DNA of 64,000 nt. Source: Candidatus Nomurabacteria bacterium. Lineage in GTDB: Bacteria > Patescibacteriota > Minisyncoccia > Phycocordibacterales > UBA9973. Below the pieces are notes generated by a model. That model saw only the letters and a list, made by a program, of their open reading frames with translations. It was not told where the DNA came from and did not search any database. A program made the position numbers and the translations under genes. The stretch spans positions 5,219 to 69,218 of the forward strand of contig JACQGC010000018.1 of assembly GCA_016199805.1 (NCBI GenBank). The letters run 5' to 3'. Shown here piece by piece: positions 2,305 through 57,375 of the stretch (positions within the stretch are counted from its first letter, which is position 1; the number at the start of each line of letters is the position of its first letter).

Positions 2305-3210
2305 ATGTTTATAATAAATCACAAAAAAATATTTATCGGCATCTCCATATCATTGGTTGTTTTGTCGCTGGCCTCACTTGCCGTATTCGGATTAAAAATC
2401 GGCATCGACTTCAAGGGTGGCGCTTTGACTGAAGTTTCTTACAAAGTGGAACGCCCGGCGCAAGCCACTTTGGAAAAGCCGCTGGCTGATTTGAATTTTG
2501 GCGCCATTATGTTGCAGCCGACGGGTACTTTGGGTTACATAGTAAAGTCCCGAGACTTGAATGATGCCGAGCACACTTCACTTTTGGGCGCGCTTTCGGA
2601 AAACAATGCCGCTCCTCTGACCGAGCTTAGTTTCAATTCCGTCGGACCTTCGGTGGGCAAGGAGCTCACCAGGAAAGCCATTTTGGCCGTTATTTTAATC
2701 TCGCTCGCGATTATTTGCTTCATCGCTTTTGCTTTCCGAAAAGTTTCCAAACCGATTTCTTCCTGGAGATACGGTATCATTGCCATCGTCACACTTTTGC
2801 ACGACGTGGCTATACCTGTCGGAATATTTGTAGTTCTCTCGCATTTTTATGGGGCGGAGGTGGACAGTCTTTTCGTGGTGGCGGTCTTAACCATTCTCGG
2901 TCTTTCCGTTTCCGATACTATTGTCATCTTTGACCGAATCAGGGAAAATTTGAGAAACCAAGCAAGTGTTGCCAAACAAAACTTCAGCGAAATAGTCGGC
3001 AAAAGTTTGTCGCAATCATTTGTGCGTTCCATCTGCACGTCTCTCACTGTCATTCTGGTTCTTCTTTCCCTGTATTTCTTTGGTCCTGAATCCACAAAAT
3101 ATTTTGCCCTGATGCTCACCGCCGGAATGTTCTTCGGAACCTATTCCTCGATTTTCCTAGCCTCACCGCTACTAGTCTGGGTAGAAGAGTGGCAGAAAAA
3201 GCAGAAATAA
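2305..3210 (+). CDS. secF: protein translocase subunit SecF
   Basis: 301 aa; begins KIGIDFKGGALTEVSY, has a C-terminal multi-TM SecD/SecF domain, and is adjacent to secD. Confidence 0.9.
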   Translation: MFIINHKKIFIGISISLVVLSLASLAVFGLKIGIDFKGGALTEVSYKVERPAQATLEKPLADLNFGAIMLQPTGTLGYIVKSRDLNDAEHTSLLGALSENNAAPLTELSFNSVGPSVGKELTRKAILAVILISLAIICFIAFAFRKVSKPISSWRYGIIAIVTLLHDVAIPVGIFVVLSHFYGAEVDSLFVVAVLTILGLSVSDTIVIFDRIRENLRNQASVAKQNFSEIVGKSLSQSFVRSICTSLTVILVLLSLYFFGPESTKYFALMLTAGMFFGTYSSIFLASPLLVWVEEWQKKQK

Positions 3211-6681: not shown

Positions 6682-7326
6682 ATGCAAACAGCTCAAGTTG
6701 TAGCGGAAAATAACCCCAACACCGGAACCTTCCTGGATTCCAGATACCTCGATCCGGGATATCTGTTTAATCACTTATTTCCCTATGTTAAAGATTTTTG
6801 GTTTTTTATCTCCAGTGACCAAGCCATAGCGGTTGAAAAAACCATCCTTGTTTTTCTGGCCATATTCTTTATCGCCATAATTTGCTACACATTTGTGCGT
6901 TTGTTTGAAATTCGAAAAAAAGAACATGCGCACCTGCATCACGAGATGAAGGAATATATGCACAACAAAACCGAGTACGAAAAACACCTGCGAGAAGAAG
7001 TCGGAGGTTCGAAAAATGAACGTTGGGGCAAGACATTAAACTATCTCTTTTCACAACATGGCAGTGATTGGAAACTGGCCATCATCGAGGCGGACTCTAT
7101 GCTCGAAGGCTTGCTCGACCAGCTCGGCTTCAAAGGGGACAACCTGGGTGACAAACTAAAATCTGCCAACCAAGAAAATTTTTCACAGCTTTCCACGGCT
7201 TGGGAAATTCATACTGTGCGAAACAGAATAGCCCACGAAGGACTAGCCTTTGAATTGACCCAGCATGAAGCCAAAAGAGTCATTGCCCTGTACGAGCAAA
7301 TCTTTCATAGTTACGGGTTTATATAA
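6682..7326 (+). CDS. hypothetical membrane-anchored protein
   Basis: 214-aa ORF with one TM (ILVFLAIFFIAIICYTFV) and a charged His-rich cytoplasmic part; no family recognised. Confidence 0.5.
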   Translation: MQTAQVVAENNPNTGTFLDSRYLDPGYLFNHLFPYVKDFWFFISSDQAIAVEKTILVFLAIFFIAIICYTFVRLFEIRKKEHAHLHHEMKEYMHNKTEYEKHLREEVGGSKNERWGKTLNYLFSQHGSDWKLAIIEADSMLEGLLDQLGFKGDNLGDKLKSANQENFSQLSTAWEIHTVRNRIAHEGLAFELTQHEAKRVIALYEQIFHSYGFI

Positions 7327-7551: not shown

Positions 7552-7624
7552 GTCGGCGTAGCTCAGGCAGTAGAGCATGGGACTCATAAGCCCAATGTCG
7601 CAAGTGCAAGTCTTGCCGCCGACA
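7552..7624 (+). tRNA. tRNA with anticodon CAU (elongator Met or lysidine-type Ile2)
   Basis: GUCGGCG/CGCCGAC acceptor, GCUC/GAGC D-stem, anticodon loop CUCAUAA, T-stem GCAAG/CUUGC with an unusual T-loop UGCAAGU; 73 nt. Confidence 0.75.
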
Positions 7625-7680
7625 CAAAGCAATATTTATCCACATTGTTGGTTAGTTGTATCTCCTGTCACGGGGTATAA

Positions 7681-8016
7681 TGTTTAGGTCGTGGTTATTT
7701 TGATGGAGATGGTAACGTATGGTCAGGTTTAATGCATAAAGAAAGGAAAACAAAAAACTTTGTTATTTTCGTTGCATTCACTTCATGCTCATATGAGTTT
7801 CTGAATGAATTACAGAAGAGGCTTAATTTAGTCGGCATTGCCGGGGGTAGTATTTATAAGTCTAAAAAAAGAAAATTTTGCAGATTGCAATTCAGCACCT
7901 CCGGAGCTTTGAAATTGTATGATTTTATGTATAATAGGAAGGTAGAAGACTTTTTCGGCCTATTTTTAAATAGAAAGAAGAAAATCTTTGAAAAATTTAA
8001 TAGATTGCGGCTGTAG
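7681..8016 (+). pseudogene. LAGLIDADG homing-endonuclease-like ORF lacking a canonical start; its 3' end overlaps exon 1 of tRNA-Asp
   Basis: In-frame translation after the TAA at 7678 reads CLGRGYFDGDGNVWSGLMHKERKTKNFVIFVAFTSCSYEFLNELQKRLNLVGIAGGSIYKSKKRKFCRLQFSTSGALKLYDFMYNRKV... The GYFDGDG motif plus the downstream beta-strand pattern matches single-motif LAGLIDADG enzymes of the I-CreI type. The first ATG (7732) falls after the motif. The TAG stop lies within tRNA positions 8-10. Confidence 0.5.
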
Positions 8017-8317
8017 CTCAACGGTAGAGCACCCGCCTGTAGATTCGTGCAGCTTTCTGTCGAAAAGGCAGATTGAAACTCTTTGGGATATCGGTGAAGG
8101 CTAACCTCCGACTTTGTGTCGGAGTATGCGAATACCGAGGGAACCCTTCCATATTTTTGCTTTTATAATAAGTAAGCAAAGAGAAGGGGCGCCGTAGAGA
8201 CTAGATACCAAAGCACCTAAAAGTGAAAACTCACGGTGAAGATATAGTCCACGCCATTATGAAAATATTGGACTTAGTGCACGTGGGAGGCCGTGGGGTC
8301 AGCACCCATCAGCCGCG
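8007..8317 (+). tRNA. tRNA-Asp (anticodon GUC) interrupted by a group I intron in the anticodon loop
   Basis: Exon 1 (8007-8040) is GCGGCUG-UA-GCUC-AACGGUA-GAGC-A-CCCGC-CUGU. Exon 2 (8280-8317) is CAC-GUGGG-AGGCC-GUGGG-GUCAGCA-CCCAU-CAGCCGC-G. The joined loop CUGUCAC, G73, G10 and C38 match tRNA-Asp identity. Acceptor halves GCGGCUG/CAGCCGC pair perfectly across the insertion. The exon ends in U and the intron ends in G. Confidence 0.7.
8041..8279 (+). mobile_element. group I intron (about 239 nt) within tRNA-Asp
   Basis: Contains conserved core elements: the R-like sequence GUAGAGACUAGA (8193-8204; compare the Azoarcus intron GUAGAGACUAGACGG) and the S element AAGAUAUAGUCC (8239-8250). Size is typical of tRNA-borne group I introns (200-250 nt). 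Boundaries follow the 5'-exon-U / intron-omegaG rule. Confidence 0.7.
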
Positions 8318-8413: not shown

Positions 8414-8773
<360 letters not shown>

Positions 8774-9546: not shown

Positions 9547-9619
9547 GCCGCTGTAGCTCAGGTAGTAGAGCAACGAATTCGTAATTCGTGGGTCGGATGT
9601 GCAAGTCATCCCAGCGGCT
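9547..9619 (+). tRNA. tRNA-Thr (anticodon CGU)
   Basis: GCCGCUG/CAGCGGC acceptor, anticodon stem ACGAA/UUCGU with loop UUCGUAA, T-loop UGCAAGU (same variant as the CAU tRNA). Confidence 0.85.
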
Positions 9620-9620
9620 C

Positions 9621-39194: not shown

Positions 39195-40067
39195 ATGGCG
39201 CAATTTACTTTTGACGGTATCGGCACGAAGTGGCAGATAGATATATTTGAAGATTTATCGGAAATAGACCAAGACAAACTTCTGGCTCGCGTAAAAAATC
39301 GCATCGAAGTTTTTGACAAAAACTATTCGCGTTTTCGCGATGATTCGCTAGTGACTAAAATGTCCAAAGAAACGGGCGTTTTTGCGCTACCCGACGACGC
39401 GGAAAAGATGTTTACCCTTTATTATGATTTATATAAAATTACCGACGGATATTTTACACCGTTAGTCGGAAACATATTATCCGACGCGGGATATGATGCG
39501 AAATATACTTTAAAGCAAAAAAAAGAACTGGAAAAAGCGCCGATCTGGGAAGATGTGATGGAATATAAATTTCCAAACATCGAAATTAAAAAACCGGTCA
39601 TCTTGGATTTTGGCGCGGGAGGAAAAGGGTACTTGCTCGATTTGGTGGCAAAAGAAATTGAAGCGAGTGGAATTTTTGAATATTGCATTGATGCGGGCGG
39701 AGATATCTTGCACAAAAATAAAGTACCGACTCGGGTAGGCTTGGAGAATCCGGAAAACACAGAGGAGGCGATAGGTGTTTACAACTTACAAAACAAAAGT
39801 ATAGCCGGTTCAGCTGGCAACAGGCGTGCGTGGGGAAATTTCACCCACATAATGAATCCCAAAACCCTAATTTCACCGAGAGACATAATAGCAGTCTGGG
39901 TAGTGGCGGAAACTGGTCTCGTGGCAGATGCGCTTGCCACCTGCCTATTTTTCGTTCCAGTATCCACCTTGTCAGACAAATACAAATTTGAATACGTTTT
40001 AGTAAAAAAAGACCATTCCATAGAAAAATCGTCCAATTTCAAAGGTGAGATGTTTTTAAAATCTTAA
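39195..40067 (+). CDS. apbE: FAD:protein FMN transferase (ApbE family)
   Basis: DGIGTKWQIDI..., LDFGAGGKGYLLD, CIDAGGDI; directly downstream of its likely substrate, the FMN-binding protein. Confidence 0.85.
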   Translation: MAQFTFDGIGTKWQIDIFEDLSEIDQDKLLARVKNRIEVFDKNYSRFRDDSLVTKMSKETGVFALPDDAEKMFTLYYDLYKITDGYFTPLVGNILSDAGYDAKYTLKQKKELEKAPIWEDVMEYKFPNIEIKKPVILDFGAGGKGYLLDLVAKEIEASGIFEYCIDAGGDILHKNKVPTRVGLENPENTEEAIGVYNLQNKSIAGSAGNRRAWGNFTHIMNPKTLISPRDIIAVWVVAETGLVADALATCLFFVPVSTLSDKYKFEYVLVKKDHSIEKSSNFKGEMFLKS

Positions 40068-40096
40068 ATTATATTGTTACCCCTAGATCAATACCT

Positions 40097-40516
40097 ATGC
40101 CCCATTTCAGCCATGGCGTAAATGGGGCAGTGTGGTATCATATATACATGAGCCCAAGATATAAAGGTATGCGAGTAAATGCTTTCGGTTTGCCAGCATT
40201 TAAAAATGGCAGGAAAAGCCGTGCAAAAACTGAAAACAGGAAAAAATCTTTTTATCATGTCACTTTTCTTTCACCTTTTAAAAAAGATTCTTCAAAGAAT
40301 TTGATTGTAATGTACGACATTCCACATTTACAGAAAAAGGAGCGGGATTGGTTTCGTCGGCAATTAATAAAATTTGATTATATAATGATTCAAAAAAGTG
40401 TTTGGGTTGGACCGTCTCCACTACCCAAAAATTTCTTAGACTACTTAAAAGAAATAAAAATAGGGGATAAGTTTAAAACCTTTACATTGGCAAAATCTTA
40501 TACAGAAAAACTTTAA
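40097..40516 (+). CDS. hypothetical small protein with a Cas2/VapD-like C-terminal half
   Basis: NLIVMYDIPHLQKKERDWFRRQLIKFDYIMIQKSVW...GDKFKTFTLA resembles the Cas2 pattern (hydrophobic strand-YD, ...R..R..L...G..IQ.SVF, ...D.V.I..L). The ORF start lies inside a palindrome, so the true start may be internal. Confidence 0.4.
   Translation: MPHFSHGVNGAVWYHIYMSPRYKGMRVNAFGLPAFKNGRKSRAKTENRKKSFYHVTFLSPFKKDSSKNLIVMYDIPHLQKKERDWFRRQLIKFDYIMIQKSVWVGPSPLPKNFLDYLKEIKIGDKFKTFTLAKSYTEKL
40098..40129. repeat. 32-bp palindrome TGCCCCATTTCAGCCATGGCGTAAATGGGGCA (near-perfect; upstream copy)
   Basis: Centred on CCATGG; differs from the downstream copy by a CA/AC swap. Confidence 0.75.
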
Positions 40517-40537
40517 TTTACTACATTACTTACCGAC

Positions 40538-40569
40538 TGCCCCATTTACGCCATGGCGTAAATGGGGCA
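40538..40569. repeat. 32-bp perfect palindrome TGCCCCATTTACGCCATGGCGTAAATGGGGCA (downstream copy)
   Basis: Its reverse complement equals itself. Second copy 440 bp upstream; together they bracket the Cas2-like ORF. Confidence 0.8.
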
Positions 40570-40617
40570 CGATGTCTTGATGTATAATTTTTTTCATAAT
40601 TTTGCTATAATAGCTTC

Positions 40618-42360
40618 GTGGAATCACAAACTAAACAGTGCCAGAATTGCCAGAAAGACTTTATAATAGAGCCGGATGATTTCGGTTTTTACGAGAAAAT
40701 AAAAGTCCCTCCGCCGACCTTTTGCCCGGAATGCCGGCTACAAAGGCGCTTGGCCTGGCGTAACGAGCGGGCCTTGTACAAACGCAAGTGCGGTTTATGC
40801 CAAAAAAGTATTATTGCAATGTATCATGAATCCATGCCATTTCCCGTATATTGTCGAGAGTGTTGGTTCGGAGATGGATGGGACCCAACTTTATATGGAA
40901 AGAAATACGATTTCAATAGAACATTTTTCGAACAATATAAAGAATTTTCAAATACTGTGCCCAGGCTAGCTTTGTGGCAAAGGAGTTCTACAAATTCAGA
41001 TTATTCCAATATGGTTGGAGAATCGAAAAATGTATATCTATCTTCTTCGGTTGTAAAAGAATCAGAAAATGTTTTTTATTCAAAGTCGGTAGATAGATCC
41101 AGAGATATCGTTGATTGTTTAAATATAATAAACGGATCAGAGAGTTTGTATGAGAACGTGGAAGCACAAAGTAATTATAATTCTCAATATCTTTTACTCT
41201 GCAGGAGTTGTTTGGATTCATACTATTCTGTTGATTGTATAAATTGTAGTAATTGTTTTCTTTCTTACAATTTGCGAAATAAAAAATTTTGTATTCGCAA
41301 TCAGCAATATGAAAAGGAAGATTATTTTAAGAAAATAGAAAAATTAAATTTAAGGAGCAGGGCTTCACGTGATTTTTTGCTGGAAGAATTTGCAGAAATT
41401 AAAAAGAAGGCAATTTATCGTTTTGGAAATATCACTAAATGTATTAATGTGACAGGAAATAATCTTTTGAATGTAAAAAATGGTAAAGATTGTTTTGAAA
41501 TTTATGATGTGGAAAATGCGAAATATTGTTATCGAGCGTTTAATCTCAAAGACTGTATGGATTTTGATTATGGAGGGTGGTCAGAATTGATGTATGAGTA
41601 CGTAACTGGCAGTCTAAATGATTATAATGTTAAATTTAGTTATTCTGCGATGGAATCCGTAAGAAATGCCGATTATACGGAATTTTGTCGAAATTGTTCT
41701 AATCTGTTTGGTTGTATTTCACTTAAAAATACAGAAAATGCAATTCTGAATATAATTTATTCCAAGGAAGAATACGAAAAACTCCGGACGCAAATCATGG
41801 AACATATGAATAGCAATCCATTTATAGACAAAGCAGGCAAAGTTTATCGATATGGAGAATTTTTTCCTATAGAAGTTTCTCCTTGGGTATATAATGAGAC
41901 TTTGTCTCAGGAATTTTTCCCAATTACCAAAGAAGAGGCGGAGAGGAATGGTTATCCATGGCGGGAACCGGATGTAAAAAATTTCGAGATTACAATTCCT
42001 ACAGAAAACATTCTGGACAATATTGACGATGTTAGTGAAGATATTTTAAAAGATGTTCTGGGTTGTGCCCACGCAGGAGAGTGTGCTCATCAATGCAATA
42101 CTGCTTTTCGTTTAACAAACTATGAACTGGTTTTTTATAAAAAACATAACATACCGCTTCCAATTCTTTGCCCCAACTGTCGTTATTACGAAAGATTCAA
42201 AGTTATGCCAGCATTGAAATTATGGCACAGGCAATGCATGTGTGATAAGAAACACACGCACCATGAGGGCAGATGCGAGATTGAATTTGAGACCAGCTAT
42301 GCGCCAGATAGGCCGGAAATAGTATATTGTGAAAAGTGTTACCAGCAGGAGGTTTACTAG
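40618..42360 (+). CDS. 580-aa cysteine-rich protein with N- and C-terminal zinc-ribbon modules and a central Asn/Ser/Cys repeat region
   Basis: GTG start after an extended -10 (GCTATAAT). Termini: CQNC-17-CPECRLQRR...C.LC and CPNCRYYERF...C.C, each with the shared FY.K..(V/I)P.P..CP.CR motif. The middle has about 20-aa periodic repeats (C.NCSN.F...). Confidence 0.6.
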   Translation: MESQTKQCQNCQKDFIIEPDDFGFYEKIKVPPPTFCPECRLQRRLAWRNERALYKRKCGLCQKSIIAMYHESMPFPVYCRECWFGDGWDPTLYGKKYDFNRTFFEQYKEFSNTVPRLALWQRSSTNSDYSNMVGESKNVYLSSSVVKESENVFYSKSVDRSRDIVDCLNIINGSESLYENVEAQSNYNSQYLLLCRSCLDSYYSVDCINCSNCFLSYNLRNKKFCIRNQQYEKEDYFKKIEKLNLRSRASRDFLLEEFAEIKKKAIYRFGNITKCINVTGNNLLNVKNGKDCFEIYDVENAKYCYRAFNLKDCMDFDYGGWSELMYEYVTGSLNDYNVKFSYSAMESVRNADYTEFCRNCSNLFGCISLKNTENAILNIIYSKEEYEKLRTQIMEHMNSNPFIDKAGKVYRYGEFFPIEVSPWVYNETLSQEFFPITKEEAERNGYPWREPDVKNFEITIPTENILDNIDDVSEDILKDVLGCAHAGECAHQCNTAFRLTNYELVFYKKHNIPLPILCPNCRYYERFKVMPALKLWHRQCMCDKKHTHHEGRCEIEFETSYAPDRPEIVYCEKCYQQEVY

Positions 42361-57140: not shown

Positions 57141-57325
57141 CTGCCTTGCGGGCAGAATTGGGGAACCTTCACCCTGTCATTCGCGAATGACGGGGTTCAA
57201 ATAAAGAAGAAGGTTTATCCTGCTCGGGACTAATGAAATAATTGGTATTCGGACTTGTTCCCGACCTAAATCGAGACTTACCGTAGCGGCACTGTACTGG
57301 AATCTAACCAGTTTCCCCAATCACT
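57141..57325 (-). promoter_or_regulatory. probable cobalamin riboswitch (aptamer plus intrinsic terminator) upstream of the DUF4430 operon
   Basis: The - strand RNA reads GAUUGGGGAAACUGGUUAGAUUCCAGUACAGUGCCGCUACGGUAAG..., resembling the cobalamin-riboswitch core (AGGGAA, GGUGAAAUUCC, GCAGCGGUAAGG as in E. coli btuB). Its 3' end is CUGCCCGCAAGGCAG plus U7 immediately before the ATG. Confidence 0.55.
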
Positions 57326-57375
57326 TCTTTTGGTTTTTAAATGAACGTCTTTAGTATATACTGGTTTCATACGCT

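Follow-up and report, generated by a model that had tools for sequence, protein, structure and literature searches.

Why does a genome-reduced bacterium carry a group I intron in the anticodon of one of its tRNA genes, and what is the open reading frame (ORF) that runs into the same gene from its 5' side? These questions are raised by a 64,000-nt stretch of DNA from Candidatus Nomurabacteria bacterium (GenBank assembly GCA_016199805.1, contig JACQGC010000018.1, positions 5,219 to 69,218 of the forward strand; referred to here as the window), in which a tRNA-Asp(GUC) gene is split by an intron and is preceded by the remains of a gene for a LAGLIDADG homing endonuclease. We propose that this locus is probably a mobile unit of two parts in a decayed state, resident on the tRNA-Asp gene of the Paceibacteria and a pair of the kind known as 'collaborative homing'. 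What appears to be new, on comparison of the sequences, is a widespread free-standing LAGLIDADG gene that is fused to tRNA-Asp and is statistically tied to the intron. Coordinates of all features are collected in Table 1.

ARAGORN misses the tRNA-Asp gene when run without an intron search; the default run over the 64 kb reported two tRNA-Met, two tRNA-Thr, and one tRNA-Gln, and nothing else. With the intron search and a lowered threshold the program called tRNA-Asp(gtc) with a 239-nt intron, and after the exons had been joined it called the same tRNA at its default threshold. The original prediction, made from the DNA letters alone, had described two halves of a tRNA-Asp(GUC) separated by 239 nt that would fold as a tRNA, and this is borne out: removal of the intron gives a cloverleaf with a 7-bp acceptor stem, the anticodon GUC, and the discriminator G73. 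Only the start of the gene has to be moved, to 8007 from 8008. The CCA end is not encoded in exon 2, and no second tRNA-Asp gene was found within the 64-kb window. The T-loop reads GUCAGCA and departs from the canonical T54-Psi55-C56...A58 pattern; because many intron-less relatives have the same GUCAGCA loop, we regard it as a trait of the lineage and not as a sign of decay. Other non-canonical T-loops are present in this genome, with UGCAAGU in both tRNA-Met (7552-7625) and tRNA-Thr(CGU) (9547-9620).

The spacer had been read as a group I intron with the core elements R and S and with a U at the end of the exon and omegaG at the end of the intron, and all of these were located, the boundary bases being U8040 and G8279. 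The proposed check against a covariance model gave a divided answer. RF00028 matches positions 7956-8271 with 43.8 bits (E = 9.4e-10 in a search of an 851-nt region), but this lies below the Rfam gathering score of 50 bits, which is why the Rfam scan of the whole window at that score reported no group I intron at the locus. The 5' end of the alignment strays spuriously into the ORF, and the core from P3 to P9 aligns well. The tRNA-Asp introns of relatives score 29.9-49.4 bits on the same model, with E-values of 1e-9 to 1e-3; this intron lineage is simply poorly covered by RF00028, and since the relatives also score below the Rfam threshold, annotation pipelines miss it.

Stronger support for the structure comes from an alignment of the window intron with 30 homologous tRNA-Asp introns from other genomes (31 in total). 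RNAalifold recovers P1, P2, P3, P4, P5, P6, P8, and P9 from this alignment, and compensatory changes are seen in 28 of the 57 predicted pairs, far beyond chance, distributed over P2, P3, P4, P5, P6, P8, and P9. All 31 homologues retain the pairs of P1, and in two of them A-U is replaced by C-G; P7 is uninformative because it is invariant. The covariation across homologues shows that the structure of the intron is real and conserved. A search with nhmmer, using a hidden Markov model built from the alignment, found this intron to be the sole copy of its lineage in the window.

Introns of this kind were described recently by Nakagawa et al. (bioRxiv 10.1101/2025.07.03.662931, July 2025; mSystems January 2026, PMC13011429), who found that group I introns interrupt genes for tRNA-Asn, tRNA-Asp, and tRNA-Tyr at position 35/36 in Patescibacteria, noted that standard tools miss or misname such split genes, and showed precise self-splicing in vitro, with an omegaG-to-C control, for one tRNA-Asn intron and one tRNA-Asp intron, the latter from GCA_001029755.1. 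As that work describes 35/36 introns in tRNA-Asp, the window intron is a new member of a published kind, and the earlier remark that intron-bearing tRNA genes are rare does not hold within Patescibacteria. The window intron shares with the published ones the phylum, the tRNA, the site between U35 and C36, the rule of exon U and intron omegaG, and the failure of standard tools to find the gene; moreover, a Paceibacteria tRNA-Asp intron in the published supplement (GCA_023898525.1) belongs to the same lineage. By analogy with the homologous case spliced in vitro, the window intron would have to self-splice from its precursor to yield tRNA-Asp(GUC). The same authors sought endonuclease genes only within the introns, found none in those of tRNA-Asp, reported that most tRNA introns lack them, and judged horizontal transfer of these introns to be probably infrequent or limited (PMC13011429). 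Unlike the arrangement they looked for, the endonuclease of window-type loci lies outside the intron, directly 5' of exon 1, and beside almost every tRNA-Asp intron that we sampled. A second, unrelated group I lineage, with the core ...GGTTCAGAGACTATCC...GATGATATAGTCC, is found at the identical 35/36 site of tRNA-Asp in other loci (Table 1).

The frame that abuts exon 1 is open for 111 codons, from 7681, right after a TAA at 7678-7680, to a TAG at 8014-8016 that is also U8-A9-G10 of the tRNA-Asp. Translation upholds the original description of a LAGLIDADG ORF that lacks a start and ends inside tRNA positions 8-10, as there is no ATG, GTG, or TTG ahead of its GYFDGDG motif and the first ATG is at 7732. 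The product is identical to a 94-aa hypothetical protein of Candidatus Nomurabacteria bacterium (HY311_03650). The profile check that had been suggested for 7681-8016 was positive, with 26 bits for Pfam LAGLIDADG_3 against a cut-off of 22.5; full-length relatives score 52-55 bits in two matched stretches. A phmmer search of the ORF against PDB sequences gave no match, and the profile of the family gave just a weak match to I-MsoI (E = 0.07). The domain was thus identified through a fold search rather than a sequence search: the AlphaFold model of the fragment (mean predicted local distance difference test score 77) has the order strand-strand-helix-strand-strand-helix-helix, and all of its top Foldseek matches in the PDB are LAGLIDADG homing endonucleases (probability 1.0, template modeling score about 0.5-0.64). 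The LAGLIDADG helix has been reduced to residues 1-9, and the model shows these as disordered.

This ORF is not the complete single-motif fold that had been supposed. It is the C-terminal half, with a truncated motif helix, of a protein of ~223 aa that has two motifs, GFFAADG and GYFDGDG, and 20 database homologues extend further in the N-terminal direction. When window positions 7626-8007 are compared by blastn with the nearest intact relative (locus L112), two pieces align, 7635-7681 with L112 768-814 and 7683-7940 with L112 1171-1415; the retained leader (7635-7681) is 83% identical to L112 and is followed by a jump to codon ~117. In place of two motif helices with terminal acidic residues, the window copy has lost domain 1 and keeps a truncated helix in domain 2. 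Because a deletion of ~350 nt took the start codon and domain 1, the window gene is dead, and the suspicion of a free-standing, decaying homing endonuclease gene was well founded. The ratio of nonsynonymous to synonymous substitution rates (dN/dS) of the remnant against its relatives, 0.10-0.16, is uninformative because dS is saturated (>1.8).

In a scan with one genome per species, at least 496 relatives of the endonuclease were found among 185,579 species genomes. The detailed analysis of loci covers the best 80 of these by score, all of them on contigs of Paceibacteria/Parcubacteria type; the contigs of L011, L054, and L068 are labelled Nitrospira sp., Azotimanducaceae, and Gammaproteobacteria, respectively, and are probably mis-binned. 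A tRNA-Asp lies 3' of the gene in nearly all of the 78 loci in which the gene end is readable, and a tRNA-Met lies upstream in most related loci with enough upstream sequence. The stop codon is mostly found within the tRNA at U8-A9-G10, or, in other frames, 14 or 20-22 nt into the tRNA. Most of the 20 database homologues accordingly end in M/L-R-x-stop, which corresponds to xTG-CGG-CTG-TAG, the first ten bases of a tRNA. Judged from these loci, the overlap of stop codon and tRNA is a conserved design of the whole family and not an accident of decay, and the family sits between tRNA-Met and tRNA-Asp in at least 80, and probably about 500, species of Paceibacteria. Five loci have a separate copy of tRNA nucleotides 1-12/16 as the end of the gene, and the real tRNA-Asp comes 70-100 nt downstream (Table 1); since genes end in such copies, the 5' end of the tRNA is part of the gene unit. 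Orphan copies of the tRNA-Asp 3' end occur 150-200 nt downstream in L001 (~3955) and L055 (~3470).

Most of the ORFs in the best 80 loci are free of stops and frameshifts, pairs of intact genes have dN/dS values of 0.09-0.19, which indicates selection at the protein level, and the terminal Asp of both GFFAADG and GYFDGDG is kept in 99-100% of the family. Three homologue contigs have the ~223-aa gene between tRNA-Met and tRNA-Asp with one defect each, a frameshift in L001 and an in-frame TAG in L002 and in L005. The genes of L001 (~2970) and L002 (~2296) are broken at the same Trp codon, in the one case by loss of 1 nt from a run of T and in the other by a change of TGG to TAG, and the single TAG of L005 lies elsewhere; these defects could be recent inactivation, sequencing error, or recoding. 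Our search of the literature found no description of this endonuclease family, of its biochemistry, or of its link to tRNA-Asp. The LAGLIDADG enzymes of rRNA introns in the Candidate Phyla Radiation (PMC11270868; Brown et al. 2015) share the phylum and the enzyme superfamily; however, they lie inside rRNA insertions, whereas the family described here is free-standing and tied to tRNA-Asp.

Of 79 endonuclease-bearing genome loci, 43 have the intron in their tRNA-Asp and 36 do not (intron status was assigned with a regular expression, and L017 and L034 were counted as intron-less by hand). That the endonuclease always travels with the intron is ruled out by L002-L005, in which it lies beside an intron-less tRNA-Asp. 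To remove the bias of a protein search, we scanned metagenomes with a pattern for the intron core, and this yielded 120 loci (L087-L206), in which an intron of the same lineage splits 75 tRNA-Asn, 34 tRNA-Asp, and 6 tRNA-Tyr genes at 35/36, with five loci unassigned. Among these 120, the endonuclease family is found upstream of tRNA-Asp only. About 30 of the tRNA-Asp loci have enough upstream sequence to be assessed; the gene is intact in 15, cut by the contig end in 4, reduced to a remnant in about 9-11, and not detectable in 2. The tRNA-Asp intron is therefore almost never found without the endonuclease or its remains, which are present at 28 of the ~30 loci. Remnants like that of the window are common, and several retain just the last ~40 codons. 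Many of the intron-bearing tRNA-Asn loci in this sample have an ORF ending in ...C..CxNCH... that reaches the 3' strand of P1 and resembles the HNH endonucleases of PMC13011429. An apparent endonuclease gene inside the intron of L082 was rejected, as the ORF simply continues through exon 1, which is at 3165-3198.

Presence of the intron also goes with the sequence of the tRNA itself. In endonuclease-bearing genomes the consensus spliced tRNA-Asp, GGTTAGAGC-N5-CCTGTCACG, has the intron in 28 of 28 cases, while among variant tRNA-Asp genes (GGTTAGTAGC, GGTAGAGC, GGTTAACA, GGCTA..., or C32U) 15 have it and 36 do not. These counts are as expected if the enzyme cuts the consensus tRNA-Asp gene and either the intron or a change in the D arm protects against it, and they are indirect evidence for such a target. 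The presence of two unrelated intron lineages at the same site of tRNA-Asp is taken as further support for this hypothesis.

The part of the gene that tends to be left behind carries a promoter-like element, TTGAAA-N15-TATAAT, of which the window has an exact copy (Table 1). Across 87 intact genes, the codons of the peptide S-L-K-L-Y-x-x-M-Y-N that spans this element are frozen at synonymous sites, the dominant codons being TTG for Leu (67/79), AAA for Lys (54/55), TAT for Tyr (84/87), and AAT for Asn (73/73); other Leu, Lys, Tyr, and Asn columns of the same genes use their codons freely. Of 81 loci, 45 have an exact copy of the element and 67 have it with at most 2 mismatches; its end lies 60-72 nt upstream of tRNA-Asp +1, and it is kept in all of the independent short remnants (L117, L132, L158, L168, L174, L195, and L126). 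From the frozen synonymous sites and the repeated retention in remnants, it is most likely that this element is the promoter of tRNA-Asp, and because the last ~40 codons hold this candidate promoter, the 3' end of the gene could not be lost.

The leader of the gene contains a second conserved element, in which GGTTAG and CCTGTCACG match the consensus bacterial tRNA-Asp in sequence and in spacing over the stretch between D-loop (GGTTAGAGC) and anticodon loop (CCTGTCACG). With at most 2 mismatches the motif is found in 48 of 79 leaders, and 35 of those have its end exactly 16 nt upstream of the start codon; the background is 2 matches in 596 kb. A TATAAT follows the motif, about 7 nt ahead of the start codon. 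The possibility of an RNA hairpin that mimics the anticodon arm was rejected after inspection of many loci by eye, as the pairing is not kept, and for this reason we treat the motif as a DNA element. In work of Edgell and colleagues from 2004, I-TevI is said to repress its own gene through an operator that mimics its homing site. The present family is similar in having a near-copy of its presumed target over the promoter region of the endonuclease, with the half-sites GGTTAG ... CCTGTCACG kept and a different center (TATAATnT); it differs in the enzyme family, and binding is putative. Alternatively, the leader motif could have been left over from a duplication of the 5' half of tRNA-Asp.

Taken together, these observations suggest a model in which the unit has two parts, an ORF-less 239-nt group I intron at position 35/36 that would self-splice to give tRNA-Asp(GUC), and a free-standing two-domain LAGLIDADG gene between tRNA-Met and tRNA-Asp with a frame that runs into the tRNA. 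The endonuclease would recognize the intron-less tRNA-Asp gene around GGTTAGAGC-N5-CCTGTCACG, from the D-loop to the anticodon loop. The intron would split this recognition site and so protect the host's own gene, and when a cut allele is repaired, the intron and the endonuclease gene next to it would be copied as one ('collaborative' or trans homing). An operator for autorepression may be provided by the near-copy of this site in the leader of the gene, and the C-terminal piece in the window probably survives through the embedded tRNA-Asp promoter.

Collaborative homing has been described in phages, for F-CphI with the psbA intron in cyanophage S-PM2 and for mobE with the I-TevIII-defective nrdB intron in T4; in these systems the target of the endonuclease is the insertion site of the intron, so that an allele is protected by the intron it carries and co-conversion takes in both the intron and the endonuclease gene (Zeng et al. 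2009; PMC6083498; PMC2790892; PMC3984707). The present loci agree with this scheme in their anatomy and in their statistics. The window and the 43 genome loci with the intron resemble the phage systems in having a free-standing endonuclease gene beside a group I intron in which there is no ORF. They differ in lying on a bacterial chromosome and in a tRNA gene rather than a protein gene, and the enzyme is of the LAGLIDADG type and not Endo VII-like or HNH. In addition, the ORF extends into the target gene and apparently contains the promoter of that gene, and cleavage here is putative.

A mobile pair is not the sole way to read the locus. The endonuclease and the intron might be independent residents, the endonuclease homing to the spacer between tRNA-Met and tRNA-Asp or to the 5' end of the tRNA and the intron being inherited vertically or spread by reverse splicing, so that their adjacency would mean nothing mechanistically. 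The 36 of 79 endonuclease-bearing genome loci without the intron fit this idea, as do the genes that end in their own copy of tRNA nucleotides 1-12/16, which suggest that a recombination arm is formed by the 5' end of the tRNA. Independence does not predict, however, that an endonuclease or its remnant accompanies 28 of the ~30 assessable introns found without reference to the protein, nor that a consensus tRNA-Asp beside an endonuclease is never intron-less (28/0), and we consider this reading unlikely. It is more improbable still that the LAGLIDADG protein has become a domesticated host factor, as a maturase for splicing or to regulate the tRNA cluster, instead of being a selfish nuclease, and that the window has simply lost it. 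LAGLIDADG maturases and WhiA regulators are known precedents for such a factor, and the intact ORFs of most species-level genomes, their low dN/dS (0.09-0.19), their fixed position, and the conserved motif in the leader, which looks like a protein-binding site, would all suit one. Yet about 40% of the copies are degraded or gone beside an intact tRNA in the sample that is unbiased towards intact genes, in almost half of the loci there is no intron on which a maturase could act, both motifs keep their terminal Asp at 99-100%, as expected for an active nuclease, and the family is patchy, with at least 496 occurrences in 185,579 species genomes.

For the window copy itself, it might be supposed that the frame of 94 to 111 codons still encodes a functional LAGLIDADG protein of one domain, active as a homodimer, given that 111 codons are still open, that dN/dS is 0.10-0.16, and that a 94-aa protein is annotated at NCBI. 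We find this hardly credible: there is no start before the motif and the ATG at 7732 comes after it, the 9 residues left of the interface helix are disordered in the model, no member of the family has a single domain, and with dS above 1.8 the low dN/dS mostly reflects divergence that preceded the deletion.

Several points weigh against the mobile pair that we favor. In 36 genomes an apparently intact endonuclease lies beside an intron-less tRNA-Asp, and therefore either the enzyme cannot cut those variants or the nuclease is inactive there. Our choice of the best 80 of at least 496 relatives by score favors intact genes, and the consensus and intron counts cover endonuclease-bearing genomes only. 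The contrast between consensus and variant tRNA-Asp (Fisher p ~1e-9) comes from a test that ignores shared ancestry, and its recurrence in at least 6 sister pairs of the endonuclease tree relies on a neighbor-joining tree that is rough. With regard to the promoters, the 15-nt spacer of the embedded element is short for sigma-70, the -35 match of the leader is weak, and a generic promoter scan listed neither the embedded nor the leader promoter. The decayed mobile pair nevertheless remains, in our judgment, the probable explanation of the locus. A fuller joint reading is more tentative, and we are inclined to doubt it as a whole: the gene would park 5' of the tRNA with its stop at U8-A9-G10, hold the tRNA promoter in its last 40 codons so that no clean deletion is available, and target the consensus tRNA-Asp from the D-loop to the anticodon loop; the host would either keep the 35/36 intron as immunity or fix D-arm variants (GGTTAGTAGC, GGTAGAGC, C32U); and the gene would repress itself through the target mimic in its leader.

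Table 1. Features of the tRNA-Asp locus in the window (upper rows) and in related contigs (last four rows, coordinates of the respective contig).
Feature	Position	Strand	Description and basis
tRNA-Met(CAU)	7552..7625	+	Conserved upstream neighbor of the endonuclease/tRNA-Asp unit; ARAGORN and Rfam
Conserved leader	7650..7681	+	GGTTAG 7650-7655, N8, CCTGTCACG 7664-7672, GGG, TATAAT 7676-7681; candidate operator and -10 box
LAGLIDADG gene remnant	7681..8016	+	C-terminal domain only (~residues 117-223), no start codon; translation, Pfam, homologues, AlphaFold and Foldseek
Deletion junction	7682..7687	+	~350 nt missing relative to intact relatives: start codon and codons 1-116 (LAGLIDADG domain 1)
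Promoter-like element	7909..7935	+	TTGAAA 7909-7914, N15, TATAAT 7930-7935; in codons ...LKLYDFMYN; 72 nt before tRNA-Asp +1
tRNA-Asp(GUC) exon 1 (positions 1-35)	8007..8040	+	GCGGCTGTAGCTCAACGGTAGAGCACCCGCCTGT, last base U35; ARAGORN with intron search
Group I intron	8041..8279	+	239 nt, no ORF, anticodon position 35/36; RF00028 match and covariation
P1	8037-8041/8048-8052		CUGUA/UGCAG, U8040.G8049 at 5' splice site; read by eye
P10 guide	8046-8049		CGUG, can pair with exon 2 bases 1-4; read by eye
P2	8056-8061/8067-8072		Read by eye
P3	8081-8086/8208-8213		Read by eye
P4	8091-8096/8133-8138		Read by eye
Element R	8194-8205	+	GTAGAGACTAGA
P7	8199-8203/8245-8249		GACUA/UAGUC; read by eye
P8	8214-8217/8235-8238		Read by eye
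Element S	8239-8250	+	AAGATATAGTCC
P9	8254-8260/8265-8271		Read by eye
omegaG	8279		Last intron base
tRNA-Asp exon 2 (positions 36-73)	8280..8317	+	CACG...CAGCCGCG; discriminator G8317; ARAGORN on joined exons and sequence
Fused tRNA 5' copies	L021 1466-1560; L030 3166-3235; L048 1132-1200; L054 3210-3290; L055 3173-3250
Second-lineage introns	L047 1045-1285; L056 3216-3460; L060 1165-1424; L061 1303-1548
Further group I introns	L001 1663-1900; L003 385-573; L005 1888-2107; L006 1505-1724	- (L001)
226-aa ORFs	L001 1996-2676; L002 1313-1993; L005 1099-1779		N-terminal helix-turn-helix and LAGLIDADG-like GLYWGEG

Some other features of the window and of the related contigs were recorded. Just downstream of tRNA-Asp, the first ~48 codons of a frame at 8456-8773 resemble an aldo/keto reductase at its N-terminus (16.5 bits in Pfam, cut-off 24), after which the similarity is lost; by this pattern the frame is probably a truncated pseudogene. 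A hairpin-like sequence, GCCCCTTGGGGGC, lies near 8719-8731, after the reductase-like frame. Further group I introns (Rfam 51-56 bits) are found close to the 226-aa ORFs of related contigs, and these ORFs and introns may form another intron/endonuclease pair in the same tRNA cluster. A 214-aa gene of the window (6682-7326) was considered as an anchor for finding endonuclease-free loci and rejected, as its identity to the 226-aa ORFs in the corresponding place in relatives is 20-26% and these encode a different helix-turn-helix protein. A cobalamin riboswitch is found at 57223-57362 on the minus strand, with 36.6 bits at the Rfam gathering score, and the G+C content is 0.34 at 40001-42000 compared with about 0.43 elsewhere in the window.

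According to the published view, tRNA introns are mostly without homing endonucleases, therefore rarely move, and may persist for the sake of regulation; the tRNA-Asp data suggest otherwise. An endonuclease that is present, but outside the intron, would provide a testable reason for the intron in what is possibly the sole tRNA-Asp gene of a genome-reduced bacterium. The frozen synonymous sites indicate that a selfish gene has apparently become entangled with the promoter of an essential gene, which would explain the persistence of dead fragments. Since this intron lineage scores below the Rfam threshold and default tools overlook the tRNA, estimates of genome completeness for these bacteria are affected. 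Collaborative homing, so far known for a few phage genes, would extend to bacterial chromosomes and to a tRNA gene. If the more tentative joint reading is true, the unusual tRNA-Asp introns of Patescibacteria would be explained by an arms race with the neighboring nuclease and not by regulation.

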